Assembly (NCBI GenBank): GCA_964475005.1
Contig: CAYYUZ010000002.1
Location: 9,272 to 73,271, forward strand
DNA length: 64,000 nucleotides
Origin: an uncultured Spirochaetales bacterium
GTDB taxonomy: Bacteria; Spirochaetota; Spirochaetia; JABEVK01
Direction of reading: 5' to 3'
The position numbers were made by a program, and so were the translations under genes. The notes beneath the pieces were generated by a model. It did not search any database. It had not been told where the DNA came from and was given only the letters and a program-made list of their open reading frames with translations. Below are positions 23,884 to 53,380 of the stretch, piece by piece; within the stretch, counting starts at the first letter, position 1, and each line of letters starts with the position of its first letter.

Positions 23884-24543
23884 TCAACCAAATTCGAAAG
23901 GCCGCGTCATCGTCAGGCTCTGCGACAGAAGCCCAACGGCCTCGGTAAAGGAATCGGCGAACTGGGGCGACTCGACCTGTCCAAAACCATACTTCGCGAA
24001 GAGAAAAGGAATACGGTTTTGTTGCGCAGCTTCGGCGTCGTGCGCGGTGTCTCCCACGTAGACCGGCGACCTCAGCTGATAGGTTTGGACAACCAGGGCA
24101 ATGTTGTCAGCCTTCGACTTGCCGGTTCGTCCGAAACACTCGAACCCCTCAAAGACCTCGCCAAGGTTGTTCTTAGCCAAAAAGTTCTCGATGTAGCCTT
24201 CCAAACAGTTGCTGATGATGAACAGCCGCTTCGACACCGCCAGGCGTGAAAGCCCGGCCTGGACGCCCTCGTAAAGAATGCCCCCGGATTTCTGAACAAG
24301 GCGCGACTCGTGACCGCGGTAGACCTTCACGAGTTCGGGATACAGTTCAGGAGGAATCCAGGGGAAGAACCTCGGCAAGAGGGTCTCAAAGGGCAGACCG
24401 GTGAAGGCGCGCACCTGGGGCGCCGACACGATCCGGTCGCCCCAGCCTAGAGTCTTCAGTGTTTCTGTCCAAGCCATGGCGCAAGTTGAACTGGCGTCCC
24501 ACAGCGTTCCGTCTAGGTCAAACAGGACGCTGTCGAAAGTCAT
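23884..24543 (-). CDS. HAD superfamily hydrolase (beta-phosphoglucomutase / sugar-phosphatase-like, subfamily IA)
   Basis: Motif I FDLDGTLWD at the N-terminus. Start re-placed at ATG 24543, which overlaps the upstream permease stop. Confidence 0.8.
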   Translation of the reverse strand: MTFDSVLFDLDGTLWDASSTCAMAWTETLKTLGWGDRIVSAPQVRAFTGLPFETLLPRFFPWIPPELYPELVKVYRGHESRLVQKSGGILYEGVQAGLSRLAVSKRLFIISNCLEGYIENFLAKNNLGEVFEGFECFGRTGKSKADNIALVVQTYQLRSPVYVGDTAHDAEAAQQNRIPFLFAKYGFGQVESPQFADSFTEAVGLLSQSLTMTRPFEFG

Positions 24544-25535
24544 ACCAATTCGCGTTTGCGCTTCTGGGTGTAGCTGTCGAGCCACAGGATGGCGACGATC
24601 ACCGCACCCTTGAGCATGACCTGGTACCACGAAGGGATGGTCAACATGTTCATGGCATTGTCGAGTAGGCCAAACACGAGCAGCCCCAGAGCCGACTGAG
24701 GAATTCCGCCTACGCCGCCGGCGAACGACGTGCCACCGACCACGGCGCCGCAGTTGACTACCAGCGCTGTGAAATCCCCGTAGACGGCGGACCCGGTGTT
24801 GAGCTTGGACGACAGCAGAACTCCGCCGAGGGCTGCCATCGTCCCGCTGATAACCAGGGTCATCCATTTGTTCTTGATGACATCGATGCCTGAATAACGG
24901 GCGACGTCGTAGTCGCCGCCGATGGCGTACAGGTTGCGTCCGAAGGCCGTGTAGCGCATCAGCCAGGCAAACAGGACGAAGCAGACCAGCATGATAATCA
25001 CCAAGTTTGGGATTCCCGGAAAGTGCCCATCGGCGAAAGTGCCGTCGCCGAAGAGGTAGCCGTTGCCAATCTGCATAAAGTCTGGATTCTTGGCGGGGAC
25101 GGGGTGGGCATCAGAAAGCTGCTGGGCCACTCCTGTCAGCATGAGGCCCACGCCAAGGGTGATGATGAACGGCTCGGTTTTCTGGTGAACCACTAGAAAA
25201 CCGTTCACGAAGCCCACCAAGGTACCGAACAGCACCGCCAGCAACAGAGCCAGCGGCATGGGCATGAAGTCCTGCAGTTGGATAGAGAGGATACCCGCGA
25301 CGACGAGGATGCCGCCGATGGAGAGGTCGCAACCACCTGAAATGATGGTTAAGCTCACGCCGAAACCCAGGATCATCAGGATGGAGGACGAGTTGAGCAT
25401 GTCGAGCAGGTTGTAGGCGCTGTAGAACTGGTCTCCTACGCTGAAAAGACCCGGCGCCATCGCCATGACAACCAGAATGATGACAATCGCCACAAGGGCC
25501 TTCTGCCTCACAAAAAGGCGGTAGAGGTTGTTCAT
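24540..25535 (-). CDS. sugar ABC transporter permease (CUT2, RbsC-like)
   Basis: About 8-10 TM helices and branched-chain/ribose permease-like sequence. ATG 25535 overlaps the upstream gene stop. Confidence 0.85.
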   Translation of the reverse strand: MNNLYRLFVRQKALVAIVIILVVMAMAPGLFSVGDQFYSAYNLLDMLNSSSILMILGFGVSLTIISGGCDLSIGGILVVAGILSIQLQDFMPMPLALLLAVLFGTLVGFVNGFLVVHQKTEPFIITLGVGLMLTGVAQQLSDAHPVPAKNPDFMQIGNGYLFGDGTFADGHFPGIPNLVIIMLVCFVLFAWLMRYTAFGRNLYAIGGDYDVARYSGIDVIKNKWMTLVISGTMAALGGVLLSSKLNTGSAVYGDFTALVVNCGAVVGGTSFAGGVGGIPQSALGLLVFGLLDNAMNMLTIPSWYQVMLKGAVIVAILWLDSYTQKRKRELV

Positions 25536-26500
25536 AGCTGGTTTCCCTGCACTTCTTTGCGGTTGTCGAGCCAGATGGCGAAAACGAGGATGAGACCCCT
25601 TGCGGCCCACTGCATGTACGAGGACACCCCCAAGAGGTTGAGGCAGTTGTTGAGCATAATTACGAGAAGAACTCCCATGACGGTGCGCAGGACGCTTCCC
25701 TTTCCTCCCTTAAGCGTCGTACCGCCCACGACCACGGCCAGAATGGCGTTTGTCTCGAAACCGAAGCCGATGACAGGGGCCGCCGTGGTGATCCGAGAGA
25801 AGAGCACAATGGCTCCGAGGGCCGCCATGAAACCGCCGATGGTGTAGATCAGGACAATCGAGCGGTCCACCGGGACGCCAGCCAGACGCGCCGCTGTCTT
25901 GTTGCCGCCCGTAAGCGAAATCGCACGGCCTGCAGCGGTCCTTGTATGGAAGATCCACAGGATGGCCAGCGCCACGAGGAAGATGATGAACGACACGGAA
26001 AGCGGACCCACGTCTCCGGCTCCGATGGAATCAAACACGGAGTGGCTGGTTGTGAGGTCCCAGAAGTGCCTTGTTGATCCTCCCGAATAGATGAGGGCGA
26101 AGGAGGAGTAGACGGTGCTCATGCCAAAGGTGATGAACAGCGCCTCGGCCTGTGTCGTCGCACCCCCTGTTAGGATGAGCACGGCGTTCATGGCGCCGCA
26201 GACCGACCCTAGAAACAGGCCGGTCGCCAAAGCTCCAGCCTGTCCGAGGGGATCGATGAGGGAGATGGTGACAACAGCGACCAAGTTGATGGTGCCGGCG
26301 ACCGAAAGATCGATGAACCCGCCTATGATGACAAAGGTCATCCCCAGCGATACAAGGATGAGCGGGCCAAACTGGCGCATGATGTTCACTAGGTTGGCCG
26401 GCGAGATGAATTTCGGCTGGATTACGGCGGTAATGAGGGCCAAGCCCAGAATCATCACAAGGACAAGGTAGTCTTTCAGGATGGAGCCCAACGCCCTCAC
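25532..26500 (-). CDS. sugar ABC transporter permease (CUT2, RbsC-like)
   Basis: Hydrophobic multi-TM protein adjacent to and overlapping the ATPase gene. Confidence 0.85.
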   Translation of the reverse strand: MRALGSILKDYLVLVMILGLALITAVIQPKFISPANLVNIMRQFGPLILVSLGMTFVIIGGFIDLSVAGTINLVAVVTISLIDPLGQAGALATGLFLGSVCGAMNAVLILTGGATTQAEALFITFGMSTVYSSFALIYSGGSTRHFWDLTTSHSVFDSIGAGDVGPLSVSFIIFLVALAILWIFHTRTAAGRAISLTGGNKTAARLAGVPVDRSIVLIYTIGGFMAALGAIVLFSRITTAAPVIGFGFETNAILAVVVGGTTLKGGKGSVLRTVMGVLLVIMLNNCLNLLGVSSYMQWAARGLILVFAIWLDNRKEVQGNQL

Positions 26501-27996
26501 AATGCGCCTCCCGCAAGCCCCAGCGCGGCCCGCATGATAGTATCGACGGGAACGTGCTCGGGCTCAAATTCACCGGTGATCCGGCCGTCGTAGATGGTGA
26601 GCACCCGGTTGCTCATGTTGAGCACCTCGGGAAGCTCTGAAGAAATCAAAATCACCGCCCCGCCCTTCTCGGCGATCTGTTTCATCAGGAGATAAATCTC
26701 GTACTTGGCACCTACGTCGATCCCCTTGGTTGGCTCGTCCATGATGAAGATGCTCGGTCCGATTTCGAGCCAGCGGCCGACGATGCATTTCTGCTGATTG
26801 CCGCCAGACAGATTCTTGATGGCGACCTTGACGTTCGGTGTTTTGATCCTGAGAGATTGCACTTGCTTCGCGCCGATGCCCTTCTCAGAAGATTTCCTCA
26901 GAAACCCGAACCTGGTGAAGCGCTCGATGGACGCCATGGAGATGTTGTGCTCCACCGAGAACGGCAGAACCAGGCCCTGGAGTTTCCGGTCTTCGGGGAT
27001 GAAGCCCAGACCCGCGTCCTTGGCGTTTTTCGGGTTGCGAATGTTCACCGGCTTTCCGTTGATGGAAATCGAATGCCCGTGGACCCGGTCGGCGCCGAAT
27101 AGAGCCCGCACGATTTCAGTGCGGCCAGCTCCGACCAAACCAACCAGGCCCAAGATTTCTCCCTTCTTCAGGTTGAATCGGATGTCATGAAGCTTTCTTG
27201 TGTTGAGGTTCTTCACCTCCATGAGCGTTTCGCCGAGATTCCGCGACCGTTCGGGATATTCGTTCTCGATGGTCCGGCCAACCATCTTGGTGATCAGTTC
27301 GTCTCGGGTGAAGTCTTGTTTCGGTTTGGTGTCGATCACGTTGCCGTCACGCATGACCGTGACGATGTCGCAGAAGTCGAAGATCTCCTCGAGCTTGTGA
27401 CTGATGTAGATGATGGAGATCCCCTGGGCCTTGAGCTGGTGGATGATCTTGACGAGCAGGGCCATTTCCTCGCTGGTCAGGCTGGTGCTAGGCTCATCCA
27501 TGATGATGAGCTTGGACTGGAACGAGAGCGCCTTGGAGATCTCGACCATCTGTTTGGTCGAAACGCTCAGCTCGGAAACGAGCTTGGTCGTGCTGACTTT
27601 GCAGCCAATACTGTCAAGCAGTTCGCGGGCTTTGGCGTGGGTCCCACGCATCCCTTTCATTTCTTTGAAGCGCCCGAGGAAGATGTTCTCGCCGACGCTC
27701 ATCGTGTTCACCAGGTTAAGCTCCTGATAGATGATGGCCAAACCGCTCTGCATGGATTCGTAAGGGGTGGTGTGCTCAATCGTCTTGCCGTCGAAGACAA
27801 TGGTTCCTGTATCTTTCTTGTAGACACCGGAAAGGATCTTCATGAGCGTGGACTTGCCCGCACCGTTCTCTCCCACCACTCCGTGCACCATGCCGCGCCT
27901 GAAATCGATCGAAACACCGTTCAGGGCCCTGACCCCGGGGAAAGTTTTTGTGACCTCTTTGATGGATAAGATAATCTCTGACCCTGCTGTATCCAT
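26497..27996 (-). CDS. sugar ABC transporter ATP-binding protein with duplicated ATPase domains (RbsA/MglA-like)
   Basis: Two Walker A motifs (GENGAGKST, GLVGAGRT), two LSGGNQQK signatures, Walker B IIMDEPT. Confidence 0.9.
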   Translation of the reverse strand: MDTAGSEIILSIKEVTKTFPGVRALNGVSIDFRRGMVHGVVGENGAGKSTLMKILSGVYKKDTGTIVFDGKTIEHTTPYESMQSGLAIIYQELNLVNTMSVGENIFLGRFKEMKGMRGTHAKARELLDSIGCKVSTTKLVSELSVSTKQMVEISKALSFQSKLIIMDEPSTSLTSEEMALLVKIIHQLKAQGISIIYISHKLEEIFDFCDIVTVMRDGNVIDTKPKQDFTRDELITKMVGRTIENEYPERSRNLGETLMEVKNLNTRKLHDIRFNLKKGEILGLVGLVGAGRTEIVRALFGADRVHGHSISINGKPVNIRNPKNAKDAGLGFIPEDRKLQGLVLPFSVEHNISMASIERFTRFGFLRKSSEKGIGAKQVQSLRIKTPNVKVAIKNLSGGNQQKCIVGRWLEIGPSIFIMDEPTKGIDVGAKYEIYLLMKQIAEKGGAVILISSELPEVLNMSNRVLTIYDGRITGEFEPEHVPVDTIMRAALGLAGGAL

Positions 27997-28077
27997 AAGT
28001 CCTAACCTATATTGGATTTGAAAAAAAACGGCCCGTTCCCCATGATGACGGAACGGGCCGCTAAACTCAACTGTCGA

Positions 28078-29022
28078 CTACCACTGGGGCAGAGGGTAGT
28101 TGTTGACGGTGCTCTTGTCGTAGATGAGCTGGGGAATCACGTTGAAGGCCTGGACCTTCTTTCCGGCCAGGACATCCTTGGCAAGGCTCAGTTCTTTCTT
28201 GACCATGGCGGTGAAGTCCTGGGCAATGGAAACGGCCTGATCGCCGCTCTTAACCTGGACATAGCCGGCCTTGTTGCCGTCGACGCCGACGATAAAGATG
28301 TTCTTAAGCCCGGCGGCCTTGGCGGCCTGGATAACGCCCGTCGCACCGTTGTCCCAGTGAACGAACACACCCTGAATCTTGTTGCCGTACTTGACGATGT
28401 CGTCTTCCATGATGGCCTGGGCTTGGTCGGTAGCCCACTGCTGGCAAGCCTTGAAGTCAAGGACCTGAATCTTGGAGCCCTTGATGCCCTTGTCGCCGTT
28501 GAAGCCGTCGTGGCGTTGCAACTGGGCGTTGTGGCCGGCCTGGCCGCCGATCTCTACGACCGTGGCGCCGTTCGGGAAAGCCTTGATGAACTGCTGGGCG
28601 GCGAGTTGTCCGCCGAGGTTGTCGTCGCTAGTGGCGGCGAAGTCGCGGTACTTCTGATCGGCCCCGACAAGTTCAGAGGAGAACATGCCAACGATGAGGC
28701 CGGCTTGTTTGGCCTTGATGATGGCCGGAACGATGGCGTGGATGTCGTTCGGATTGAGGAAGATCGCCTTGAACTTCTGAGCGATGCAGTTCGTGACGAT
28801 CTGCGACTCAGCCTGGGTGTCGCCCTTGGCGTCGAAAGTGGACACTTCGAACCCGTAGTCGGCACCGTATTTCAAAAACTCTTTTGCGGAGAAAGCCTGC
28901 GACTCGTTGGCCTGGTTGGACACGATGAACGCGGCCTTGACTTTGGCTTGGGCGAACGCTCCCGCGCTCATCCCGATGAGCAACGCCAGTCCTATGACCA
29001 GCACCTTGTTGAATCTTGCCAC
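28078..29022 (-). CDS. sugar ABC transporter periplasmic binding protein (RbsB-like)
   Basis: Signal peptide ARFNKVLVIGLALLIGMSAGAFAQA and periplasmic-binding fold sequence. GTG start at 29022 with GGAGG RBS. Confidence 0.85.
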   Translation of the reverse strand: MARFNKVLVIGLALLIGMSAGAFAQAKVKAAFIVSNQANESQAFSAKEFLKYGADYGFEVSTFDAKGDTQAESQIVTNCIAQKFKAIFLNPNDIHAIVPAIIKAKQAGLIVGMFSSELVGADQKYRDFAATSDDNLGGQLAAQQFIKAFPNGATVVEIGGQAGHNAQLQRHDGFNGDKGIKGSKIQVLDFKACQQWATDQAQAIMEDDIVKYGNKIQGVFVHWDNGATGVIQAAKAAGLKNIFIVGVDGNKAGYVQVKSGDQAVSIAQDFTAMVKKELSLAKDVLAGKKVQAFNVIPQLIYDKSTVNNYPLPQW

Positions 29023-29110
29023 AATGAACCTCCATTGTTTTTTTACAGAACGTGAAGACGCCTGTAATTCCCAAAATCTTCGATCCACTTTCGGTATCTG
29101 TCAAGCACGA

Positions 29111-29435: not shown

Positions 29436-30446
29436 GTGCCCTCACAACAGCAAGTGGCCGCGAGAGCCAACGTGTCATACATGACCGTCTCGCGGGTGGT
29501 CAACAACCATCCCAACGTGAAGAAGGAAACTCGCGAGCTTGTGCTCAAGGCGATCCAGGAGCTAGGATACCATCCCAACGCGTCGGCCCGGGCACTGAAC
29601 GCCCATAAGACCAGCAACATCGGTCTCATCTTTCCGCCCAAAGAGAACGTTTACTCGCGCCCGTTTTATGTGGACCTAGCGATCGAACTCGAAGACCAAC
29701 TGCACCGGCGAGGTTACCACCTGTTCCTCGGAATGACGAGGACTGGAGACCAGTTCCGGGATCCTGCACTTCTGCTCAAGGAACGCAAAGTCGACGGCAT
29801 CATCCTTGTAGCGCCACGTATGGGCGACCTGGAAGTCGAAAGACTTGTGTCCGACGGGTTGCCTCTGGTCCTTTTGCATGGACGCAGCGACACGACGACC
29901 TGCCCCTACGTGGATACCGACAACGTGATGGGAACCCAAATGATCCTCCGCTATTTGATCCAACTTGGACACCGGCGCATCGGGTTCGTTAGCGGCATTA
30001 TGGGTGAGGTGAACGCTCAAGATCGCTACAACGCCTATTGCGACGAACTGAAGTCCGCCGGCCTGGCGTTTGACAACACTCTCGTCTTCCGAGGGGACTG
30101 GTCCATTGAGAGCGGCTACGAGGCGTTTTCGGCAATCCGCAACAGGGCACCAGACGCGACGGCCCTGTTCTATTCGAACGATCAGATGGCGCTGGGCGGG
30201 TTCCGGGCAGCGTATGACAACAATCTCTTCATTCCCGAAGACATCTCGATCAGCGGCTACGATGATACGAAGTACGCCTCGTTCGCGGTTCCAGCGCTAA
30301 CGACGGTTCGGCAACCTCTGTCGGAACTGGCGTCTGCCGCCGTTGAGCTTGTCCTTGAGCGCATCAAGGGGCGCCCGATCCGCAACGTCGTCCTGACTCC
30401 CGAGATCAAAATCCGCTCATCCTGCCGTCGAATCAACCCTCTGTAA
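29436..30446 (+). CDS. LacI family transcriptional regulator
   Basis: N-terminal HTH (VAARANVSYMTVSRVVNNHPNVKKETRELV) and periplasmic-binding-like effector domain. GTG 29436 with GAGAGG RBS. Confidence 0.85.
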   Translation: MPSQQQVAARANVSYMTVSRVVNNHPNVKKETRELVLKAIQELGYHPNASARALNAHKTSNIGLIFPPKENVYSRPFYVDLAIELEDQLHRRGYHLFLGMTRTGDQFRDPALLLKERKVDGIILVAPRMGDLEVERLVSDGLPLVLLHGRSDTTTCPYVDTDNVMGTQMILRYLIQLGHRRIGFVSGIMGEVNAQDRYNAYCDELKSAGLAFDNTLVFRGDWSIESGYEAFSAIRNRAPDATALFYSNDQMALGGFRAAYDNNLFIPEDISISGYDDTKYASFAVPALTTVRQPLSELASAAVELVLERIKGRPIRNVVLTPEIKIRSSCRRINPL

Positions 30447-31995
30447 GGTGGTCCGCCAGCCGTAGAGCCAGGGCAACAATCGTGAGGGTGGGATTGGCGT
30501 AGCCGCTGGTGGGAAACTGCCCGCAACCCGCCGAGTACAGATTGTCGACGGTGTGGAAACGCGAGTCGGAATTGACGATACCTTCTTCGGAAGTCGCGGC
30601 CATGCGCAGAGCTCCCATGTGGTGGTCGCCGGTGGCCAGGGCGTTTTCGGTCCGCCCGAAGGTCCACTGCTCGGCTCCCCCCTCCAGATTGGTGGTGAGT
30701 CGGAACTCCGTGGCGCCGTGACGGCGCAGATAGGCTTCGCCTAAAGCCATGGCCCTCACCGCGGTCCTCTTGTCTTCTTCGGCCAGTCGCCAGTCGAGCC
30801 GGGTGACTGCTTGGTCAAAAACAGGGTCGACTTCACGCTCATCAAGGGTAATGCGGCTGGCTTCGTTGGGAACCTGCTCCCAGTTGATGTTGAGTTCCGC
30901 GCGGTCGCCCTCCGGGTTGAACCTGACAATGATGCGGAAGTTTCCGATCTTTTCTGCGGCCAGGGTTTCGTGCGTCGGGACCAAGACGCCCCACGCGTTG
31001 AAGACGCAATGCTTGAATAGAAGCCGCGGATCGACAAGCGGAGCCGTGTCGTGAACCCAGTCCTGTTGGGCTTCGGGGTTTCTCAGCCGGATCTGCTGGT
31101 CCCTGTAGAAATTTCTTACCTCGGCGGCGACAGGCTGGGCAAACCTGACCTCGGCGACCGTTGTGATGAGAGGATGGACCATGAAGCCCCTTCCCAAATG
31201 GTCTTTTCGGTTGTTGCCCAGGTCGCCCGAAAGCTTGAGAACCCTCACGGTCTCGATACCGCCCAGGGCCAGCACGAATTTCGAAGCCGTGACAGTAAAC
31301 CTGTGCCCTTCCCTCCCCCCTGCGATGCTGGCACAGACAAGGGAAGTGACGTGAGACTTGTCGGGGGAAGCCTCAATCTTGAGGAGACTCGCGTTGAACA
31401 GGACGGTCACATTGGCCGCCGCCTTAAGCGTGTCGCCCGCACGAAGCTGAAAATCGTGGTAACGTTCCTCGTACTGGGCATGAAAGATGGCGACGCCGAG
31501 TTCGTCACCCGGAAGCGTTGGGAAGTTCTTTCCAAACAGGGCCTTTTCCCAGAACGGCAGGTCGTCGAAATTGAATGGCCCGTAGCGGCCCCAATCCATG
31601 GCTTGTTGATAGTACGGGGTCAAAGTCTGTAGAGCAAAGGGCCAGGAGGCGGCGCGGTAGCCCGGCCGCGGAAGAAAGTCGGCCTCGTCGAGGGGCCTCG
31701 ACCAGAAGCCAAAGTGGTTGGTTGTCCCGCCGAACATATGCAGGCGAGATCTCCTCAGAAAGAGAGGGTCGACCTTTTCGAGGAAGGGGCCTCGGGTGCC
31801 ACCGTAGATCTTTTGGCGAAAACTGGGAGGAAGTCCTTTCTCGTCGGGAAGGCCGGCGGCGAGCACGAGAACTTTCTTGCCGCTCCCCGCCAAACGCCGC
31901 GCCAAGACCAGCCCCGCCGCGCCGGCGCCCACAATGCAGATGTCGTATTCGCGTACAAGAGTTCCGCGGGGAATGTCTTCACTGGAGAGGTACAT
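30433..31995 (-). CDS. GMC family FAD-dependent oxidoreductase
   Basis: N-terminal Rossmann fold DICIVGAGAAGLVLARRL, 520 aa, C-terminal GMC region (HHMGALRMA...). Confidence 0.8.
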   Translation of the reverse strand: MYLSSEDIPRGTLVREYDICIVGAGAAGLVLARRLAGSGKKVLVLAAGLPDEKGLPPSFRQKIYGGTRGPFLEKVDPLFLRRSRLHMFGGTTNHFGFWSRPLDEADFLPRPGYRAASWPFALQTLTPYYQQAMDWGRYGPFNFDDLPFWEKALFGKNFPTLPGDELGVAIFHAQYEERYHDFQLRAGDTLKAAANVTVLFNASLLKIEASPDKSHVTSLVCASIAGGREGHRFTVTASKFVLALGGIETVRVLKLSGDLGNNRKDHLGRGFMVHPLITTVAEVRFAQPVAAEVRNFYRDQQIRLRNPEAQQDWVHDTAPLVDPRLLFKHCVFNAWGVLVPTHETLAAEKIGNFRIIVRFNPEGDRAELNINWEQVPNEASRITLDEREVDPVFDQAVTRLDWRLAEEDKRTAVRAMALGEAYLRRHGATEFRLTTNLEGGAEQWTFGRTENALATGDHHMGALRMAATSEEGIVNSDSRFHTVDNLYSAGCGQFPTSGYANPTLTIVALALRLADHLTEG

Positions 31996-32017
31996 GCCTC
32001 ATGGTATACTAGGAACC

Positions 32018-32848
32018 ATGGCAGAATCCCCCTCTTCACGGGCGGAAATCACCGCGAGTTTTCTGGCCGCTATTCGTCCACAGGCCGTCGAGGTCAGGTT
32101 CTGCGAGCGTTTTGACGGTCAAAGCCGAATCTGGAACTTCGAGAACCACTCCCACGGGGTGTTTGAGTTCCTCTATTTTCTTGATGGAGGAGCCATGATC
32201 CGCGCCGGCGAGGCAGAGCTGGAGGCCGGGCTCTTCGACCTGGTCGTCTACCCACCGGGCGTGGTCCACGAGGAAAAGCTTGTCGAAGGGTTCCGTAATG
32301 AAGTCTTTTGCTTCTGGCTCGATTTGGGTGAGGTTCCCCGGTTCCCTTGGGGGATCAAGGTGCGCGATTCCACCGGAGAGATTCGCGTGCTGATCGAGGC
32401 CATCTATCAGGAGGCGGTTTCGCGCCGGCCCCTCGGCCCCGAGATGATCACAACCTATGTACAGGGACTGCTGGTATTGGCCCGGCGCTGGTTTGCCGAG
32501 CCCAACAGAGAGGACGGAGGCCTGGTTGGCCGATGCCTGAGCTACATTCACGAGCACTACACCGAGGACTTCGCCATTGAAACGATGGCCAAGGCCGTGG
32601 CGGTGAGCCCCTCCTACCTGTTCCGTTCGTTCAAGAAGAAGATGAACCAGACCCCCATGCACTTTCGCAACACCGTCAGGATTGAGAAGTCCAAACTCCT
32701 GTTGTGCCAAAGCAACCGCCGGATCGAACTGGTGGCCCTCGATCTAGGGTTCGCCGACGTGAAGTATTTCTCGTCGCTGTTCCGCCAGATCACCGGGCAG
32801 ACTCCCGGAACGTTTCGAAAGCTCAACCGGCACCCGGCGTTGCAGTAG
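32018..32848 (+). CDS. AraC family transcriptional regulator (cupin plus HTH)
   Basis: Cupin-like N-terminus (HSHGVFEFLYFLDGG) and AraC HTH C-terminus (SPSYLFRSFKKKMNQTPMHFR). ATG 32018; ATG 31994 would overlap the GMC start. Confidence 0.75.
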   Translation: MAESPSSRAEITASFLAAIRPQAVEVRFCERFDGQSRIWNFENHSHGVFEFLYFLDGGAMIRAGEAELEAGLFDLVVYPPGVVHEEKLVEGFRNEVFCFWLDLGEVPRFPWGIKVRDSTGEIRVLIEAIYQEAVSRRPLGPEMITTYVQGLLVLARRWFAEPNREDGGLVGRCLSYIHEHYTEDFAIETMAKAVAVSPSYLFRSFKKKMNQTPMHFRNTVRIEKSKLLLCQSNRRIELVALDLGFADVKYFSSLFRQITGQTPGTFRKLNRHPALQ

Positions 32849-32923: not shown

Positions 32924-35308
32924 ATGAAGAGTCTTCCTGTTTTCTTCATCCCGGAACCTTCCCTCAGAATTGCGTCGCTCAAGGCCAAACTCCAAGCCGA
33001 GCCACGGTACCTGTCGATTGAGCAAGCTCTCCTTGTCACCAAGACCTACAAGGCCCACGAAGGGGCTTCTGTCGCCAAGAAAAGGGCGCTCTCGCTGGCG
33101 CTGTCCCTCAGGGAGATTGGTATCGCCCTCGACATTGACGAACTGATCGTGGGCAATCGGACCGCGGGAATCCGGGCAGGGGTTGTTTTCCCCGAAGCGG
33201 GCATATCTTGGATCGACAAGGAGCTCGAGAGTCTGCCGACCCGCCCTCAGGACAGGTTCCTGGTTAGGCCCGACGACGCCCAGAAATTTCGCAAGGTCAT
33301 TTTGCCGTACTGGAAAGGAAAGACTCTTGAAGACACCATCAGGGAGGAGGCGGGCGACGTCGTCGATGCCATCGGCCGGGTGGTGAAGATCAATCAGAAG
33401 GACCACGCCCAAGGCCACATTTGCCCCGATACCGCGTTGTGGATCAAGGTGGGCGCTGCGGGTCTTCAACAGGACGCGCACAAGCGCTTGGATCAAGAGG
33501 CAGACCCAAGGAAGAAAGAGTTTTACGAGAGTGTTGTCATCGTCTTGTCGGCGGCAAGGGATTTCATGGTTCGCTATGCGGTGCAAGCCGAGGCCATGCT
33601 TCACACCGCCGGGGCCGACCAGCGCAGCAACCTGGCCGAGATCGCCCGGATCTGCCGAAAACTGGCCGGTCCAGCGGGAACCTGCGGGGCCGAGACCTTC
33701 CGCGAGGCCCTTCAGGCCCTGTGGTTTCTGTTTGTCATCCTCCATTTAGAAAGCAACGCTTCGTCGTTCTCGCCGGGTCGAGCCGACCAGTACTTGCTTC
33801 CCTACTTTCGCGCCGACCGCACGGCGGGCCGCTTGAGTGAGGCCGATGCGCTGGAACTGGTCGAGGCTCTCTGGTTGAAATTCAACCAGATCGTCTACCT
33901 GCGAAACGCTCACAGCGCCGCGTTTTTTGCCGGGTTTCCGATCGGATTTAACGTGGCCATCGGTGGCCGAAACCCCGATGCCTCTGATGCGGCGAACGAG
34001 CTTTCGTATCTGTTTCTTCAAGCGCAAGGAGCCCTGGGGCTTCCCCAACCCAACCTTTCGGCGAGACTCCACGAACGCTCGCCCCAGGAATTCCTCGACG
34101 CGTGCTCCACGGTGATCGGACGGGGCAGCGGCATGCCCCAAGTCTTCAATGATGAGAGCATCGTACCCGCGCTGACGGTGCAGGGTATTTCAAAAGCCGA
34201 TGCCGAAAACTACGCCATCGTCGGGTGCGTGGAACTGACCACTCACGGCAACAATCTTGGGTGGAGCGACGCGGCCATGTTCAACCTGCCCAAGGCCCTT
34301 GAGCTGGCCCTCAACGATGGAGTCGACCTGATTTCCGGACAAAGGCTGTCGCCGGGAACCGGCACTTTGGCCGACTATGCCACCTTCCTCGACGTCGAAA
34401 ACGCCTTTCGCGTTCAGATCGACTATTTCTTTGAAAAGATGATCGAGGCGTGCGAAAAAGTGGAATCGGCGCACCAAAGGCTCATGCCCACCGCCTTCCT
34501 TTCATCGGTCATCGGGGACTGTCTGGAAAGTGGGCTCGACGTGGTCGCCGGTGGGGCGCACTACAACCTTTCCGGTATCCAGGTGATCCAGCCGGCCAAC
34601 ATCGCCGATTCTCTGGCGGCGCTCAAGTCATTGGTCTACGACCGGCACGAAATTGACAGAGGCTTCGTATTGGATGCCCTCAGAAACAACTTTCACGACA
34701 ACGAGAGCCTTCAAAAGGTCCTCCTCGAGGAAGCCCCCAAGTACGGAAACGATGTGGAGTGGGTCGACGGGCTCGCGAACGTCTGGATCACCTACTTTGC
34801 TAAAAAGTTCGAAGGCCGTTCAAACTTTCGGGGCGGCCGCTACCACACGGGAATGTACACGGTGAGCGCCCACGTACCGATGGGGGCCAACGTCGGCGCC
34901 TCGCCCGACGGCAGGCTGGCCAAGACTCCTCTGGCTGACGGAGGGATGTCGGCCGTCTACGGCCGGGACCGCAAGGGACCGACCGCCGTTCTCAAATCGG
35001 TGTCTCGGATCAATTCCGCTCTCGGGAGCAACGGCACCCTGCTCAACCTGAAGTTCCTCCCGCAGTTCTTCTCGACACAAGAGGGAATCCGCAAGTTCTC
35101 AAGCCTGCTCAAGGCCTTCGTCAGACTTCGCATCAACCACGCGCAGTTCAACGTGGTTCGCAAGGAGGACCTCCTTGACGCGCAAAAACACCCAGAAAAC
35201 TATAGGTCGCTAACGATCCGGGTGGCCGGCTACACGGCCTACTTCACCGAGTTGGCCACGGATCTCCAGAATGAAATCATCGCCCGAACTTCGTATGACG
35301 ATCTTTGA
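32924..35308 (+). CDS. glycyl radical enzyme, PFL2/dehydratase-eliminase clade (794 aa)
   Basis: C-terminal glycine-radical motif RVAGYTAYFTEL. Single active-site Cys followed by Glu (AIVGCVELTTHG), as in glycerol dehydratase, CutC, HypD and IslA-type eliminases. Confidence 0.9.
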   Translation: MKSLPVFFIPEPSLRIASLKAKLQAEPRYLSIEQALLVTKTYKAHEGASVAKKRALSLALSLREIGIALDIDELIVGNRTAGIRAGVVFPEAGISWIDKELESLPTRPQDRFLVRPDDAQKFRKVILPYWKGKTLEDTIREEAGDVVDAIGRVVKINQKDHAQGHICPDTALWIKVGAAGLQQDAHKRLDQEADPRKKEFYESVVIVLSAARDFMVRYAVQAEAMLHTAGADQRSNLAEIARICRKLAGPAGTCGAETFREALQALWFLFVILHLESNASSFSPGRADQYLLPYFRADRTAGRLSEADALELVEALWLKFNQIVYLRNAHSAAFFAGFPIGFNVAIGGRNPDASDAANELSYLFLQAQGALGLPQPNLSARLHERSPQEFLDACSTVIGRGSGMPQVFNDESIVPALTVQGISKADAENYAIVGCVELTTHGNNLGWSDAAMFNLPKALELALNDGVDLISGQRLSPGTGTLADYATFLDVENAFRVQIDYFFEKMIEACEKVESAHQRLMPTAFLSSVIGDCLESGLDVVAGGAHYNLSGIQVIQPANIADSLAALKSLVYDRHEIDRGFVLDALRNNFHDNESLQKVLLEEAPKYGNDVEWVDGLANVWITYFAKKFEGRSNFRGGRYHTGMYTVSAHVPMGANVGASPDGRLAKTPLADGGMSAVYGRDRKGPTAVLKSVSRINSALGSNGTLLNLKFLPQFFSTQEGIRKFSSLLKAFVRLRINHAQFNVVRKEDLLDAQKHPENYRSLTIRVAGYTAYFTELATDLQNEIIARTSYDDL

Positions 35309-36071
35309 CGTTCAGCGCTTCTCGGTCCACGACGGACCGGGAATTCGCACGACGGCGTTTTTGAAGGGATGTCTGCTGAGGTGTGTGTGGTGCCAGAATC
35401 CTGAGGGGCTCAAGTTCGGCACAGGCGATCCGATGCACTCAAGCAAAGTCCGCGAAGTCACCCCAGCGGCCTTGGCCGAAGAACTGCTTGCCGACCGCGT
35501 GTTCTTCGAGACCTCGGGAGGAGGCGTCACGTTCTCAGGAGGCGAGCCGCTGGCGCAGGCCGAAGGTTTGGTTGAAACGGCCAGAATTCTACGCTCGCAA
35601 GGAATTCACGTCGCGGTTGAAACGTCGCTGGAGGTTCCTCTGGAGCGGCTCCAACGGGTTTTGGACGAGGTGGATTTGGTCCTGGCCGACCTCAAGGTTG
35701 CCGATCCAGAAGATCACAAGAAGTGGACCGGACGCGGAAATGAGAGGATTCTGGGGAACTTCCAGGCGCTGGCGAAGTATTCAGCAAAGCACGGACATCC
35801 TCAAATCGTCGTCCGCACGCCTCTGGTTCCGGGGCATACGGCCACCAAGGCCAACCTGACCAAACTCCGCGAGTTTCTGGCCTCTTGGGGACCTGTTTCT
35901 TGGGAACTTCTGGATTTCAACCCATTGGCCAAAGCCAAGTACCGGGCCCTCGGCCGCTCCGACTACCCTTTCGACCACCTCAGCACAGGCTTGACGCACG
36001 AAGAACGCTGCCAATTGAACGAGGCGGCCGGACTGATCGAATCACCGCCTAAGGAGACCTCCACCTCATGA
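35295..36071 (+). CDS. glycyl radical enzyme activating enzyme (radical SAM), compact form
   Basis: CLLRCVWCQNPE (CX3CX2C) near the N-terminus and FDVQRFSVHDGPGIRT. Only about 40 residues to the GGGVTFSGGEP motif, so no ferredoxin-like insertion. Overlaps the GRE stop by 14 nt. Confidence 0.9.
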   Translation: MTIFDVQRFSVHDGPGIRTTAFLKGCLLRCVWCQNPEGLKFGTGDPMHSSKVREVTPAALAEELLADRVFFETSGGGVTFSGGEPLAQAEGLVETARILRSQGIHVAVETSLEVPLERLQRVLDEVDLVLADLKVADPEDHKKWTGRGNERILGNFQALAKYSAKHGHPQIVVRTPLVPGHTATKANLTKLREFLASWGPVSWELLDFNPLAKAKYRALGRSDYPFDHLSTGLTHEERCQLNEAAGLIESPPKETSTS

Positions 36072-37912
36072 TTTCGAGTATCGAGTCGTTCTTGACACGA
36101 GCCAAAGCGGGTAGCCCGGTCTTCATCACCGAAGTCCGGCGAACCTTCGAAGCACTTCCGCGGGATCAGAGGTTTCGTCTGGGCGTCAACTTGACCCTGC
36201 CGGACCGCACGGTGCGCTGTTTTAGGATCACGCTACCAACGTTTGCCGTCGACAGCCAGCCGGATCCGCAGCGGCTCTTTGCCGAAGAGTACTTTCTTTC
36301 CGAAATGTACAACCGGATCTCGGCTCTGGGGGCCAGAGACCTCGAGTTTCGGACCGAGGAGGGACTGCCCGAAGCGGTTTGGCTGCACCAACGCTTTGAA
36401 GCCGCCTTCGGTCTGGCACAGAGGCGAAAGGCCCGACGGGGCTACGGCCGCGCCGTCAACGTTGTCGAGCGGATGATCGATTCTTTGGAACACACAACCA
36501 ATTCACGAATGTCGTGCCGGTTCACCCTCGGTCGTTTGGAGGAGGTTACTCAGGTGTCCCGTGCGCACAGTGGTGGAGTTCTCGCTCTGGCCGACCGAGC
36601 GCTGCGAGGGGTGGCACGACGCACCCTTTTAGGCATCGATGTGGGCGGAAGCGACATCAAACTGGCGTTGTCGATCGACGGCAGGCTGGCCGGCCTCAAG
36701 GAATACGACTGGTTCCCCGCTCAATTCACTCGCATCGCCTCGTTGACCGACCCCATCGAAGCTCTGGTAAGGCTCATGGCCTGGAAGGCTGTCGCATTGG
36801 GTGCCGCTGATGGAAGACCCGACCCAGCCCTCGATGCGGTTCTAGACCCGGCCTTTGCACTCAAAGCGGACAACGCCACCCTGAATCGAGTCTTGGAACT
36901 GGCCGCACCGCTTGTAGAAAGCCGCGACACAGCGTTCAAGCTCGACGGCATTGGACTCTCGTTTCCCGATGTCGTGGTCAAAGACAAGATTGTCGGCGGC
37001 GAGGTCTACAAGACCCGCGGCATCCGCGACAACCCTTCACTCGACTACGAGGCCGAGTTCCGCTCCCTGACCGAACTTGACACGCGTTTGCGGCGGTTGG
37101 TGAAGGACGGGGCCCCAGTGGTCACGGTGAACGACGGACCGATGGCCGCCTTCACGGCGCTGGTCGAAGGAAGTCTTGCCGATCCGAGCGGCGTCGAGGA
37201 CGGCATTTTTGCCCATACTCTCGGAACCGAACTCGGTACCGGCTGGGTGACCGAAAACGGCAAGATTCCTGACATCCCCCTCGAGGTCTACAACTTCATC
37301 ATCGACCTGGGCTCGTACCCCGAAAGGGAGTTCGACTGCGATGATCCCCGGAGTGTGAAGAACTTCAACACCGACCTTCCGGGCACCCTGCAGAAGTACA
37401 CAAGCCAGAGCGGCGCGTTCCGCCTGGCTCTCAAGCATTTCCCTGTCGAGCGTCCGGACTTGCTGAGAGAAATCTTCAAGAAAGGCTTCGTTGTGCCTGG
37501 TCCCGGTGACACTCTGCGAATTCCCTCGGAACCTCAAGATCAGCGCAAGCCGTTCCTCGAATACCTGATGGCCCTTCCTGATCGTGACGGGCAGGCTTCA
37601 GTGAACCGGATCTTTCGTGAGATCGGTGAGTTCCTCGCGGTAGCCACAGAGGAATGCAACCAGATTTTGCAACCCGCGGCTTCGCCTCGCATCCTTTTTG
37701 GACGCATGGTCAAGAACCCCTCGTGTTTTCGCTTGATGCGGGAGGGGGCGCAGTCGTTCGATCCGAAGATCACCCTCGGTCAGGCGGCCGACGACATGGC
37801 GATGTCAAAACTGATGCGCGAATTGAAGGAGGACCCCCGTCACACTGTGGCTCAATTCGCCCAGGCCGTTGGCGCGGTTCACTACGTTGCCAGCCGTTTT
37901 CAAGGCGCGTGA
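36068..37912 (+). CDS. uncharacterised ASKHA-superfamily (sugar-kinase/HgdC/ROK-like fold) protein with about 200-aa N-terminal extension
   Basis: Phosphate-1-like GIDVGGSDIKLAL near residue 215 and glycine-rich FAHTLGTELGTGWV later. ATGA overlap with the activase stop. Confidence 0.6.
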   Translation: MISSIESFLTRAKAGSPVFITEVRRTFEALPRDQRFRLGVNLTLPDRTVRCFRITLPTFAVDSQPDPQRLFAEEYFLSEMYNRISALGARDLEFRTEEGLPEAVWLHQRFEAAFGLAQRRKARRGYGRAVNVVERMIDSLEHTTNSRMSCRFTLGRLEEVTQVSRAHSGGVLALADRALRGVARRTLLGIDVGGSDIKLALSIDGRLAGLKEYDWFPAQFTRIASLTDPIEALVRLMAWKAVALGAADGRPDPALDAVLDPAFALKADNATLNRVLELAAPLVESRDTAFKLDGIGLSFPDVVVKDKIVGGEVYKTRGIRDNPSLDYEAEFRSLTELDTRLRRLVKDGAPVVTVNDGPMAAFTALVEGSLADPSGVEDGIFAHTLGTELGTGWVTENGKIPDIPLEVYNFIIDLGSYPEREFDCDDPRSVKNFNTDLPGTLQKYTSQSGAFRLALKHFPVERPDLLREIFKKGFVVPGPGDTLRIPSEPQDQRKPFLEYLMALPDRDGQASVNRIFREIGEFLAVATEECNQILQPAASPRILFGRMVKNPSCFRLMREGAQSFDPKITLGQAADDMAMSKLMRELKEDPRHTVAQFAQAVGAVHYVASRFQGA

Positions 37913-37965: not shown

Positions 37966-38706
37966 ATGACCAAGCGCCTTGACCAAATTCTGAAGATCCT
38001 CTCAGAACAGCACAAAGTCTCGGTGATTGAACTTTCGGAAGACCTGAAGGTTTCTCCGGCCACCATTCGACAAGATTTGACAGTGCTTGAGCAGGAAGGC
38101 CTACTTGTCCGCAACCATGGCGGGGCCGAGCTCAGGGAATCGGACGATCTGGCCCATCGCATGGCGATCAACTACGAAGACAAACTGAAGATCGCCCACA
38201 AGGCGGTAGAACTTGTCGATGAAGGCGATACAATCTTTGTCGAGTCCGGGTCAACCAACGCAATCTTCGTGAAGGAGCTGACGGCCGCCAAGCGGGTGAC
38301 CATCATCACGTCCAACGCCTTCATCGCCCGCAAGGTCGACCAATCCAGGGGTGGAAGCGTGATCTTGATCGGCGGCGTCTTTCAGAGGGAAAGCGAAAGC
38401 ATCGTCGGCAATATGGCCAAGGACAACATCGACCAGGTCAACTTTAACCGGGCCTTTTTGGGAGTCGACGGGTTCACCCCCGAAACCGGGTTCACCGGCC
38501 GCGACATGATGCGCGCCGAGATCGTCAACTACATCGTTTCCAAGGCCCGCGAAGTCATCATCCTCACCGATTCTTCGAAGTTCGGGCAAATCCACCTGTC
38601 TCGCTGTTGCCGGCTCGAAGACGTCGACCGCATCATCACCGACGGCCGCCTCTCGGAAAAGTACCGGGAGTTGGTGTCGGCAAAAGTTGACTTGATGCTG
38701 GTGTAG
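37966..38706 (+). CDS. DeoR family transcriptional regulator
   Basis: N-terminal DeoR HTH (RLDQILKILSEQHKVSVIELSEDLKVSPATIRQDLTVLE) and C-terminal sugar-phosphate-binding domain. Confidence 0.85.
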   Translation: MTKRLDQILKILSEQHKVSVIELSEDLKVSPATIRQDLTVLEQEGLLVRNHGGAELRESDDLAHRMAINYEDKLKIAHKAVELVDEGDTIFVESGSTNAIFVKELTAAKRVTIITSNAFIARKVDQSRGGSVILIGGVFQRESESIVGNMAKDNIDQVNFNRAFLGVDGFTPETGFTGRDMMRAEIVNYIVSKAREVIILTDSSKFGQIHLSRCCRLEDVDRIITDGRLSEKYRELVSAKVDLMLV

Positions 38707-40767: not shown

Positions 40768-41892
40768 CTAATAATCCGCCACGGGCACCCAGCGCTGGTC
40801 GAGCGCAGAAGCGTAGGCCGCGTCCATCACGAGGTTGTTGCGCAAACCATCCTCGATGCCGGGGCTGGGGGGTGTGCGTTCGATGACGGATTTCAGGAAC
40901 TGGTACTGGTTTTCCGCGTGCGTTCTCTCCCAGCCGAGGATGGCCCTGGCGGGCGGCACAATGGCTCCCTCGTAGGTTTGAATCGTTTCAAGTCGCGTCC
41001 AGCCCGCCTCTCCGGATTTTCGCGTGGCGTCGAACCAGTACAGCCAGTTGGCGTCCATCAAGTCGAAGCGAAACGCCCCCTTGGAGCCCTCCACGATCAA
41101 ACGCAGATCGTCGGCCGAACCTGTGGCAAAACGCGAAACCGTCAGCGTGCCCGTGGCCCCGTTCTTCATCGTCGCCTGAATCCAAGCGGCGTCGTCAACG
41201 TCAACGGGTCCGGTCTCCGGGGCTCCTTTGAAGAGCGGTCGCTGGGTGATGTAGGTCTTGGTCGTGGCCGAGACCTCGGCAAATTCGCCGACAAGGAAGC
41301 GGACCAAGTCGATGATGTGCGAGCCGAGATCCATGATTGCCCCGCCCCCGGAACTTTCGCGCTTCATCCGCCAACTGAGCGGCCGTGAAGCGTCCTGGTA
41401 GCCTGTGTGCAGGTACTCGGCGTGAAAGCGGTAAATCTCCCCAAGGGCCCCCGACTCGACGAGCCTGCGGGCCTTTTGGATGGCAGGCACAAACCTGTAG
41501 TTGAAGGTCATGCCAAGAGTCCCTGTCGACGAGGCCGCGAGGGCCGCGAGTTCGCGGGCCTCCTTTCCTGTCAATGCCAACGGCTTCTCACAATAGATGC
41601 TCTTCCCGGCCCGCAACGTGGCAAAAACCGCCTCCTTGTGGGCGTCGTTGGGGAGCACGCAGTCGACGACGTGGACCTCAGGGTCGTTCACCATTTCCTG
41701 AAGGTTGGTGTACGCCTTTGTGAAACCCCCGTCGGCAGCGGCTGCCTGAGCACTCTTCTGGGAGCGCGTACACACGGCCGCCAGACGGTAGCGGGGAAAA
41801 CTCGGGTAGTAACTGGGAATGCTTCTGTAGGCCAAAGTGTGGAGCTTGCCGATGCCCCCGTAGCCCGCCAGGCCAATACCAAGTGTTGTCAT
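40768..41892 (-). CDS. Gfo/Idh/MocA family NAD(P)-dependent oxidoreductase
   Basis: N-terminal Rossmann fold LGIGLAGYGGIGKLH and characteristic Gfo/Idh/MocA layout (EKPLALT...). Confidence 0.85.
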   Translation of the reverse strand: MTTLGIGLAGYGGIGKLHTLAYRSIPSYYPSFPRYRLAAVCTRSQKSAQAAAADGGFTKAYTNLQEMVNDPEVHVVDCVLPNDAHKEAVFATLRAGKSIYCEKPLALTGKEARELAALAASSTGTLGMTFNYRFVPAIQKARRLVESGALGEIYRFHAEYLHTGYQDASRPLSWRMKRESSGGGAIMDLGSHIIDLVRFLVGEFAEVSATTKTYITQRPLFKGAPETGPVDVDDAAWIQATMKNGATGTLTVSRFATGSADDLRLIVEGSKGAFRFDLMDANWLYWFDATRKSGEAGWTRLETIQTYEGAIVPPARAILGWERTHAENQYQFLKSVIERTPPSPGIEDGLRNNLVMDAAYASALDQRWVPVADY

Positions 41893-41901: not shown

Positions 41902-42696
41902 TTAGACCAGACCGGACGCATTCCGGTACTTTGCCGAGGCTTCATCCATGGTTGCCTTCAATTCCTTCACGGCCCGGGCGATGTCGCCGGCCCCAGGCTC
42001 AAAACGGCCTTTCGGACCCTTCATAAGCGGCGAGGAGAATTCGCCAACGGTCATGCCGGCCGCGATGAACTCACCGACGTTCTTTTTGTTTAGGCCGCCG
42101 TCTTCCATCACGTCGAGGTCGCCCTCGCGACCAGCGGCGACCACCATCGCGTGGAGCCGACGGATGTTGTCGAGCATGATGGGGTCCATGGTGTGGGGGC
42201 TGGCCGCGCCCGACAAGGGTTTCCAGAACGGGGCCTTGCTCTCGTACTCGATGATATCCACAAAAGGGATGTATTGTTCAAAGGAGACGAGGGGGGTTCC
42301 CTGCCAGGCCCAGACTCCCACCTTCATCCCTAAAGTTTCCTTAACCATAAGGACCTGCTGCATGAGCATTTCGCCAGTCGTTTCAATGGGAAGACTAACA
42401 AGGTCGGCACCGAGGTCCTTCAATTGACGCAAAAGGTCGAAATTGGGTCTCATCATCTGAAGCTGAACTTCGATCTCAAGCTTGGTGTGCCGTCTGATTC
42501 CTTCCAAGATGTCGATTCCGCCGCGGGGAGCCGAGAAGTCCATGTACTTGCCGTCGCGCATTTCAATGTGGATCCAGTCCGCGCCGCCGGCTTCAAGTTC
42601 CTTGACCGTGTCGGCAAGATTTCCGTAGTCGGCCCAGAACAGCCCAGCCGCAATCTTGGCGTGTTTCCCCACTTTTCCAATCCTAGAATCGCCCAT
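41902..42696 (-). CDS. ribulose-phosphate 3-epimerase family protein (divergent, RPE/allulose-6-P epimerase-like TIM barrel)
   Basis: KIAAGLFWADYGNLADTVKELEAGGADWIHIEMRDGKY parallels the RPE N-terminus; C-terminal EDGGLN motif. ATG 42696 with GGAGG RBS. Confidence 0.65.
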   Translation of the reverse strand: MGDSRIGKVGKHAKIAAGLFWADYGNLADTVKELEAGGADWIHIEMRDGKYMDFSAPRGGIDILEGIRRHTKLEIEVQLQMMRPNFDLLRQLKDLGADLVSLPIETTGEMLMQQVLMVKETLGMKVGVWAWQGTPLVSFEQYIPFVDIIEYESKAPFWKPLSGAASPHTMDPIMLDNIRRLHAMVVAAGREGDLDVMEDGGLNKKNVGEFIAAGMTVGEFSSPLMKGPKGRFEPGAGDIARAVKELKATMDEASAKYRNASGLV

Positions 42697-42839
42697 CCCA
42701 GAGCCTCCAATGCGCCAAAGGCTAATCCGAAGCAGGGACGCTGTCAAGCAAAATGTTCGTTTATTCAGATATACGAAAGCTATTTCATTTCACTTGAAGT
42801 CATGATATTCTTCATTTGTCGACATTTGGAGGGCAATCG

Positions 42840-48407: not shown

Positions 48408-48411
48408 CGTC

Positions 48412-53229: not shown

Positions 53230-53327
53230 CACAACCCCTTGGTATTCCTTAGCAACTAGGCTAAGCTTTTTATTAAGCGAGTTTCGAGATTGAATATTAT
53301 TATCAGGCATTTTTTTTAATGAGTCAA

Positions 53328-53355: not shown

Positions 53356-53380
53356 GAGTTCGAGCAAAGCCGAGGTGACC

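Follow-up and report, generated by a model that had tools for sequence, protein, structure and literature searches.

A glycyl radical enzyme from a clade beside PflD and its predicted kinase-like partner in an uncultured Spirochaetales bacterium

The functions of PflD and YbiW, two glycyl radical enzymes (GREs), were reportedly assigned by Ma et al. in JACS in 2024, together with a radical fermentation route for 1,5-anhydro-sugars. In a 2026 review (PMC13450708), PflD (structures 8ID0 and 8YJO) is described as the ring-opening C-O lyase of 1,5-anhydromannitol-6-phosphate (AM6P) and YbiW (8ID7 and 8YJN) as that of 1,5-anhydroglucitol-6-phosphate (AG6P); both keep the Cys-X-Glu (CXE) motif and eliminase-like chemistry, no leaving group is released, and they are classed there as GRE 'isomerases' (PMC13450708). 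A much larger, multi-phylum family related to these two enzymes is still uncharacterised. Here, we analysed GRE1, a GRE of this kind encoded in a 64,000-nucleotide stretch of an uncultured Spirochaetales bacterium (assembly GCA_964475005.1, contig CAYYUZ010000002.1, positions 9,272 to 73,271 of the forward strand; the whole stretch is called the window below), together with the activase and the protein of 614 amino acids, ORF600, that are encoded behind it. With moderate confidence, and by analogy with PflD, we propose that GRE1 is a sugar-phosphate ring-opening lyase, the substrate of which would be an anhydro-sugar phosphate made by a kinase. In many environmental anaerobes, an enzyme of the GRE1 clade appears to be served by an ATP-binding cassette (ABC) importer and an unannotated kinase of ~600 amino acids, and not by a phosphotransferase system (PTS).

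The GRE1 gene and its enzyme class

The GRE1 open reading frame (ORF) opens with ATG, lies exactly at 32924..35308 on the plus strand in our ORF listing and encodes 794 amino acids. The original prediction, which was made from the DNA letters and their translations, had placed a GCVE Cys loop and an RVAGYTAYF glycine loop in this gene. Both were located in the 794-residue translation, where AIVGCVELTTHG covers Gly434-Cys435-Val436-Glu437, and the Pfam and NCBIfam profiles agree with them. GRE1 matches the Pfam families PFL-like (PF02901, E = 2.3e-184) and Gly_radical (PF01228, E = 5.4e-30), and its score with the NCBIfam model TIGR01774 (PFL2-3) is 742.5 bits, which is above the cut-off of 678.2. 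Since these three profile matches are so strong, the motifs are not due to chance, and GRE1 is a genuine GRE of the PFL-like division. The Cys loop VGCVE contains one Cys and not the Cys-Cys pair of pyruvate formate-lyase (PFL), and with the PFL equivalog TIGR01255, GRE1 scores 153 bits where 994 are required. Because of the single loop Cys and this low score, GRE1 is, as judged from its sequence, not a pyruvate/ketoacid formate-lyase (PflB, TdcE), as had been predicted; its length, as also predicted, is consistent with that of the short PFL2-type enzymes.

For the catalytic residues, the sequences of glycerol dehydratase (GD) and of PflD 8ID0 were reconstructed from printed alignments and the published numbering was regained. 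In local alignments, Cys435 and Glu437 of GRE1 line up without gaps with Cys433 and Glu435 of GD and with Cys431 and Glu433 of PflD, which are named as the catalytic Cys and Glu of these enzymes in the 2026 review; according to the same source, GD catalysis employs Glu435 and His164 (PMC13450708). By the position of its Cys-X-Glu motif, GRE1 belongs to the CXE-type GREs, which comprise 1,2-eliminases and isomerases. Hence the predicted equivalence of the loop Glu with the catalytic Glu of the eliminases held, whereas the predicted 1,2-eliminase class looks less probable, since the nearest solved relative, PflD, is a GRE 'isomerase' that carries the CXE motif as well.

GRE1 passes no curated NCBIfam equivalog model. 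Its scores (with the cut-offs in brackets) were 706.6 bits for PflD NF007437 (1109), 513 for HpfG (1000), 511 for HypD (1100), 500 for HpsG (1000), 477 for CutC (1050), 344 for IAD (1100) and 290 for HPAD (1150), so that the values for HypD, CutC, HpsG and HpfG are about half of what these models demand.

GRE1 among its relatives

Among the solved structures, GRE1 is most similar to PflD 8ID0 (2e-182) and E. coli PflD 8YJO (2e-180), followed by GD 1R8W (1e-162), the propanediol dehydratases 9RCO and 5I2A, and then YbiW, HpyG, CutC, HypD and IslA. The kinship with glycerol and hydroxyproline dehydratases that had been suggested at the outset is therefore not upheld, as both PflD structures outrank GD and the HypD score is far below its cut-off. 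At E <= 1e-50, more than 4,800 database proteins are homologous to GRE1, and a substrate assignment would annotate all of them; the best 120 are 62-81% identical to GRE1 and carry generic names throughout. The relatives with an identity of 74-81% belong to Spirochaetales and Treponema metagenome-assembled genomes, which, taken with the chemotaxis and FlgD-Ig/OmpA proteins of the window (Table 2), points to a spirochaete as its source. Scanning one genome per species yielded 80 GRE1-like loci (52-76% identity) from Spirochaetota, Planctomycetota, Chloroflexota, Firmicutes, Bacteroidota, Actinomycetota and Fusobacteriota.

PflD and YbiW of E. coli MG1655 were added to the comparison set; GRE1 is 40.5% identical to the former and 35% identical to the latter. 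In a neighbour-joining tree, three clades stand beside GD: a YbiW clade, which includes a second GRE of the window (GRE2), a PflD clade consisting of E. coli PflD, 8ID0 and two variants, and a GRE1 clade of 74 sequences. The GRE1 clade was monophyletic in 100 of 100 bootstrap replicates, the YbiW clade was recovered equally often with GRE1 outside it, and the GRE1 clade together with PflD was split from YbiW and GD in 99 of 100. The mean identity within the GRE1 clade is 60.5%, compared to 41.5% to PflD, 38.4% to GD and 35.6% to YbiW. Since members of the GRE1 clade from different phyla are still 55-60% identical, and GRE2 and E. coli YbiW share 55%, we read the identity of 41% between the GRE1 clade and PflD as the mark of an ancient paralogy and not of taxonomic distance. 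On this tree, the GRE1 clade is a well-supported, widespread and uncharacterised sister clade of PflD. The Cys-loop signature is GCVELTT(H/Q)GNNLGWSD in the GRE1 clade and GCVE(L/T)SIPGRTYGLHD in PflD.

In two enzymes of the PflD clade (L014:3684 and L007:2559), the Cys loop reads GCVQ in place of GCVE, which exchanges the catalytic Glu for Gln. Both share their locus with an enzyme of the GRE1 clade, and the L007 locus also holds an enzyme of the YbiW clade.

We next compared the pocket at the positions known from the literature to line the pockets of GD and HypD, which were transferred by sequence alignment (Table 1). For GD, we took the pocket of 1R9D to consist of His164, His281, Ser282, Tyr339, Asp447 and Tyr640. 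With Cys435 and Glu437 added to the nine positions of the table, GRE1 is identical to PflD at 10 of 11 positions and to GD at 7 of 11. GRE1 keeps the GD-equivalent His165, Ser281, Asp449 and Tyr645 and is without His281 and Tyr339 of GD, which are replaced by Ser280 and Gly341. Residues common to GRE1 and PflD are, in PflD numbering, N161, Q162, D164, Q167, A276, S277, G337, Q402, D445, Y628 and H633. A pocket identical to that of a known enzyme had been named as a finding that would speak against the original prediction; this is nearly the case for PflD at the GD-equivalent positions, but GRE1 is not simply PflD, because other positions that are conserved in both families differ.

Table 1. 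Pocket-equivalent residues of GRE1, PflD and glycerol dehydratase
GRE1	PflD (8ID0)	GD
N157	N161	N156
H165	His (conserved GH motif)	H164
S280	S277	H281
S281	Ser (ESNASS)	S282
G341	G337	Y339
F342	Y338	Q340
D449	D445	D447
Y645	Y628	Y640
H650	H633	N645

GRE1 thus resembles PflD, its best solved match, in the CXE Cys loop and the Gly loop, and in the NQxD..QGH loop, ESNASS, FAGFPxG, D449 and YTVSAH at most of the pocket-equivalent positions. With YbiW, GRE1 shares the superfamily, the CXE motif and the proposed ring-opening chemistry; in contrast, the pocket signature of YbiW (G157, H282, Y344, Q345, G456 and S662) differs from GRE1 almost everywhere, at an overall identity of 35%. With GD of Clostridium butyricum (DhaB1, 1R8W/1R9D) and the propanediol dehydratases (5I2A, 9RCO), GRE1 has a similar length and the aligned Cys and Glu in common, and it is 37% identical to GD.

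These comparisons bear on whether GRE1 could be a true 1,2-eliminase that removes water from a polyol which is small or acyclic, such as glycerol, propanediol or a hexitol phosphate; from the last of these, loss of water at C1/C2 would give a 1-deoxy-ketose phosphate. In favour of this, GRE1 conserves the CXE motif and an equivalent of GD His164 (His165), GD is the third-best solved relative, and by our own chemical reasoning the dehydration of a hexitol-6-phosphate would yield the same product that FSA-type aldolases can cleave. However, GD His281, Tyr339, Gln340 and Asn645 are replaced by Ser, Gly, Phe and His, the HpfG and HypD models reach only half of their cut-offs, and GRE1 lies among genes for sugar uptake, kinases and sugar regulators. 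Diol-fermentation genes (for aldehyde dehydrogenase or 1,3-propanediol dehydrogenase) and microcompartment genes were not found among the window ORFs scanned. We therefore regard a polyol dehydratase as improbable. In particular, we rejected a glycerol or propanediol dehydratase for GRE1 because of its pocket residues and its gene context.

The kinase-like partner ORF600 and the gene context of GRE1

The ORFs of all loci were clustered across loci, and two kinds of context were defined. In about 20 of the 74 members of the GRE1 clade (from Firmicutes, Fusobacterium and some Actinomycetota), the genes for the GRE and its activase are joined by those for an FSA aldolase and/or a Frw-type PTS; these loci usually have a DeoR regulator and in some cases PtsA-like and YbiV-like genes, and their gene content matches that of E. 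coli frwCB-pflDC-frwD/ptsA/fsaB. In 16 of the 74, the window included, the order is GRE-activase-ORF600, often accompanied by an ABC importer of the ribose type and by an AraC regulator. Only eight conservative columns differ between the GREs of the two kinds of loci, compared to 240 columns that are at least 95% conserved in the whole clade, and because of this the PTS-linked and kinase-linked enzymes are very probably isofunctional. Since the PTS-linked members are necessarily given a phosphorylated sugar, the shared substrate of the clade is most likely a sugar phosphate.

The activase is a GRE-activating radical S-adenosylmethionine (SAM) enzyme (Table 2), for which 35295 is an alternative start according to the gene calls of the one identical contig found elsewhere, a short one in an ENA metagenome assembly. 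It has the CX3CX2C motif and no Cys in the next 75 residues, compared to 4-10 in nearly all of its relatives. As judged from this Cys count, the activase of the window is without the auxiliary ferredoxin-like Fe-S insert, and the fusion proteins P0126 and P0127, which are closely related, show the same loss.

The start of ORF600 and the stop of the activase gene share 4 nt. No Pfam match (ROK included) or NCBIfam match was obtained for ORF600, and its relatives are almost all named 'hypothetical protein'. The family is small and isolated; among 1.84 billion, 267 representatives reach E <= 1e-3. Across 70 aligned members, the motifs GIDVGG(T/S)DIK, NDG and TLGTExGxG are invariant, as is a single Cys; the ROK Zn-binding Cys motif is absent, while the ROK catalytic-Asp motif is kept and a Glu is conserved in the sugar-binding region. 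The AlphaFold2 (AF2) model of ORF600 has a pLDDT (predicted local distance difference test score) of 93.7 and a pTM (predicted template modelling score) of 0.93. Foldseek against the PDB placed ROK gluco-, ManNAc- and GlcNAc-kinases at the top, with E values down to 2e-12 (2QM1), template modelling (TM) scores of ~0.7 normalised to the kinase and 12-15% identity; phmmer against the PDB gave a marginal ROK match only (1WOQ, E about 1). ORF600 also has an extra N-terminal domain of ~185 amino acids. When residues 1-184 were folded alone, the pLDDT was 89.9, and Foldseek against the PDB returned no significant solved-structure match for them (best E = 6e-3, TM < 0.3).

Compared with ROK kinases (the glucokinases 2QM1 and 3VGK, and NanK), ORF600 shares the predicted ASKHA/ROK fold, the DxGG phosphate-1 motif, the NDx catalytic-Asp motif and the GTxxGxG phosphate-2 motif. 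Unlike them, it is twice as long, carries the N-terminal domain and insertions, has neither the Zn-binding Cys motif nor a Pfam ROK match, and is linked genetically to a GRE-activase pair, at times by fusion to the activase. Genes of the ORF600 family nearly always come straight behind such a pair: a search begun from distant ORF600 homologues found three of three directly downstream of one. The slot behind the activase is filled by a canonical ROK kinase in four loci (L051, L056, L067 and L068). In-frame activase-ORF600 fusions occur in three independent lineages (P0126, P0127 and the distant P0322), and P0127 (MEI8093771.1) adjoins a GRE that is 80% identical to GRE1. On the model and its context, ORF600 is most likely a sugar kinase of a previously unrecognised type that stands in for the PTS, and the fusions leave a small chance that it plays a role in activation. 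A role as Fe-S 'archerase'-type ATPase was ruled out, as only one Cys is invariant. If the substrate of GRE1 were assigned, more than 1,000 'hypothetical' kinase-like proteins would be annotated too, and the mechanistic meaning of the recurrent kinase-activase fusion would become testable.

The order of the two steps could also be reversed, with GRE1 taking an unphosphorylated sugar and ORF600 phosphorylating the ring-opened product, or ORF600 could use ATP to assist the activase or the GRE in activation or repair. The three independent fusions, the N-terminal domain that matches no solved structure, the activase of the window without its auxiliary Fe-S insert, and the loss in GRE1 of the basic PflD residues K165 and R439 would fit such a role. 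In contrast, the PTS-linked members must receive a phosphorylated sugar and have essentially the same conserved core as the kinase-linked ones; ORF600 retains the catalytic-Asp motif and the conserved Glu of the sugar region; it cannot hold an Fe-S cluster, because only one Cys is invariant; and a plain ROK kinase takes its place in some loci. Both versions are accordingly quite unlikely, and a sugar kinase acting ahead of GRE1 is what we favour.

The ribose-type ABC sugar importer of the window comprises two permeases, an ATPase and a binding protein of the Peripla_BP_4 type. The same type of importer lies directly before the GRE, activase and ORF600 genes in four other loci (L005, L006, L081 and L088). 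It is probably the uptake system for the substrate of GRE1; we infer its assignment to the GRE1 module. An AraC gene lies 5' of the GRE gene in many kinase-type loci, as it does in the window, and a DeoR gene like the one downstream of the operon was found in 32 related loci.

The proposed reaction and the other genes of the window

Our proposal for GRE1 as a ring-opening lyase is thus of a three-gene operon that would encode the catalytic subunit, its radical-SAM activase and the sugar kinase ORF600. The nearby ABC transporter would bring in a sugar for phosphorylation by ORF600, which would replace the PTS of E. coli and Firmicutes. The steps of catalysis are modelled on other CXE enzymes by homology. 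The activase would install a radical on Gly769, which would be relayed to Cys435; the Cys435 thiyl radical would take H from the substrate at a carbinol carbon; Glu437 would deprotonate the hydroxyl to give a ketyl radical; and the adjacent C-O bond would then be cleaved by a spin-centre shift and the H atom handed back. The substrate would most likely be a cyclic ether that derives from a sugar and carries a phosphate, of the type of the 1,5-anhydrohexitol-6-phosphates. Its ring oxygen would act as the 'leaving group', and the product would be a 1-deoxy-ketose-6-phosphate, as with PflD and YbiW, to be cleaved by an FSA-type aldolase in those relatives that encode one.

Several results weigh against this proposal. 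GRE1 is 41-42% identical to PflD, which is hardly above its identity to GD (37-38%), and it misses the PflD equivalog cut-off by ~400 bits. Seven family-conserved residues are swapped from PflD 8ID0 to GRE1 (K165 to H161, T336 to I340, Y338 to F342, R439 to N443, Y441 to L445, G538 to Q556 and R36 to Q34), and two of these swaps drop basic side chains that might bind the phosphate. In addition, tblastn with 21 FSA sequences found no FSA-type aldolase in the 64-kb window, Pfam scans found no aldolase among its other ORFs, and most of the other kinase-type loci are without an FSA-type aldolase as well.

The same differences matter for the identity of the sugar. GRE1 could be a functional PflD orthologue, an AM6P C-O lyase forming 1-deoxyfructose-6-phosphate, and be paired with GRE2 as PflD is with YbiW in E. 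coli; this would be a special case of the ring-opening lyase in which the substrate is named. PflD is the best solved relative of GRE1, 10 of the 11 pocket-equivalent positions are identical, and relatives in the clade resemble the pflD locus of E. coli in their Frw-type PTS, FSA aldolase and DeoR genes. A GRE1-type and a YbiW-type enzyme also frequently share one locus, and the window has one of each and no strict PflD. On the other hand, an identity of 41% is paralogy-like when the GRE1 clade keeps 55-60% across phyla and GRE2 keeps 55% to YbiW, seven positions conserved in both families differ, the PflD cut-off is missed, and in the window a PTS is replaced by an ABC importer and a novel kinase, with no aldolase close by. 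PflD orthology in the strict sense is therefore rather unlikely in our view. Somewhat more readily, though still tentatively, we suggest that the GRE1 clade may be a third, functionally distinct branch of 'anhydroglycolysis' with a substrate that is neither AG6P nor AM6P, and that ORF600 would found a new family of activase-coupled sugar kinases. Candidates for such a substrate would be another anhydro- or deoxy-hexitol phosphate, or a hexitol phosphate that is dehydrated to a 1-deoxy-ketose phosphate. An assigned substrate would widen the map of anaerobic sugar catabolism.

Table 2. Features of the window, with positions counted from its first nucleotide
Feature	Position	Strand	Basis or remark
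GRE1, 794-aa glycyl radical enzyme of the PflD-sister clade	32924..35308	+	ORF, Pfam/NCBIfam, PDB ranking, clade analysis
Cys loop G434-C435-V436-E437 (thiyl radical Cys and general-base Glu)	34223..34234	+	aligns with GD C433/E435 and PflD C431/E433
Glycine radical loop R766-V-A-G769-Y (within RVAGYTAYF)	35219..35233	+	Pfam Gly_radical at residues 673-775
GRE-activating radical SAM enzyme, 266 aa	35271..36071	+	TIGR02494, 222 bits (cut-off 174); directly after GRE1
ORF600, 614-aa protein without family assignment, predicted ROK-like (ASKHA) sugar kinase	36068..37912	+	AF2, Foldseek, motifs, synteny
DeoR-family regulator, downstream of the operon	37966..38706	+	Pfam HTH_DeoR and DeoRC
AraC-family regulator, immediately upstream of GRE1	31877..32848	+	Pfam HTH_18, HTH_AraC; start probably near 32195 (shorter gene call)
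Ribose-type ABC sugar importer	24540..29088	-	Pfam, NCBIfam
GMC-family flavoprotein oxidoreductase	30433..31995	-	
Levoglucosan-dehydrogenase-like Gfo/Idh/MocA oxidoreductase	40768..41892	-	NF052479, 256 bits, below cut-off 650
Ribulose-phosphate-3-epimerase-family protein	41902..42747	-	Pfam Ribul_P_3_epim
ROK kinase, canonical	42816..43799	+	
GMC-family flavoprotein oxidoreductase	43796..45277	+	
DeoR regulator	45274..46191	-	
GRE2, 795-aa glycyl radical enzyme	46020..48407	-	55% identical to E. coli YbiW
GRE2 activase	48412..49308	-	full ferredoxin-like insert
365-aa ORF	49411..50508	-	no Pfam or NCBIfam match; directly adjoins the GRE2 activase
237-aa ORF	57901..58614	+	no Pfam match
191-aa ORF	16687..17262	-	no Pfam match
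GH31 glycosidase	11472..13958	-	
Pyruvate phosphate dikinase	17474..20161	+	
GH3 glycosidase	20857..23142	-	
Several methyl-accepting chemotaxis proteins and one FlgD-Ig/OmpA protein	2414..4330, 55972..57786, 60111..61805, 50695..53382		

The second GRE module spans 42816..49308 and lies ~11 kb from GRE1 (Table 2). By identity and tree position, GRE2 is a YbiW orthologue. Kinase-type loci often adjoin a YbiW-type GRE that is accompanied by a canonical ROK kinase and a DeoR regulator, an arrangement shared by the window, and the two GRE types lie next to each other in many further genomes. The Gfo/Idh/MocA oxidoreductase and the epimerase stand as a pair between the two GRE modules of the window, and the same pair lies directly upstream of GRE1-clade genes in two spirochaete loci (L067 and L068), which hints at further steps of anhydro-sugar processing.

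Each of the two GRE modules also has a GMC-family flavoprotein oxidoreductase beside it. The C-terminal similarity of this pair to pyranose oxidase makes a role in sugar C2/C3 oxidation conceivable. Farther from the modules, the window encodes two glycosidases and a pyruvate phosphate dikinase; one of the glycosidases belongs to GH31, a family that includes the alpha-glucan lyases, which produce 1,5-anhydrofructose.

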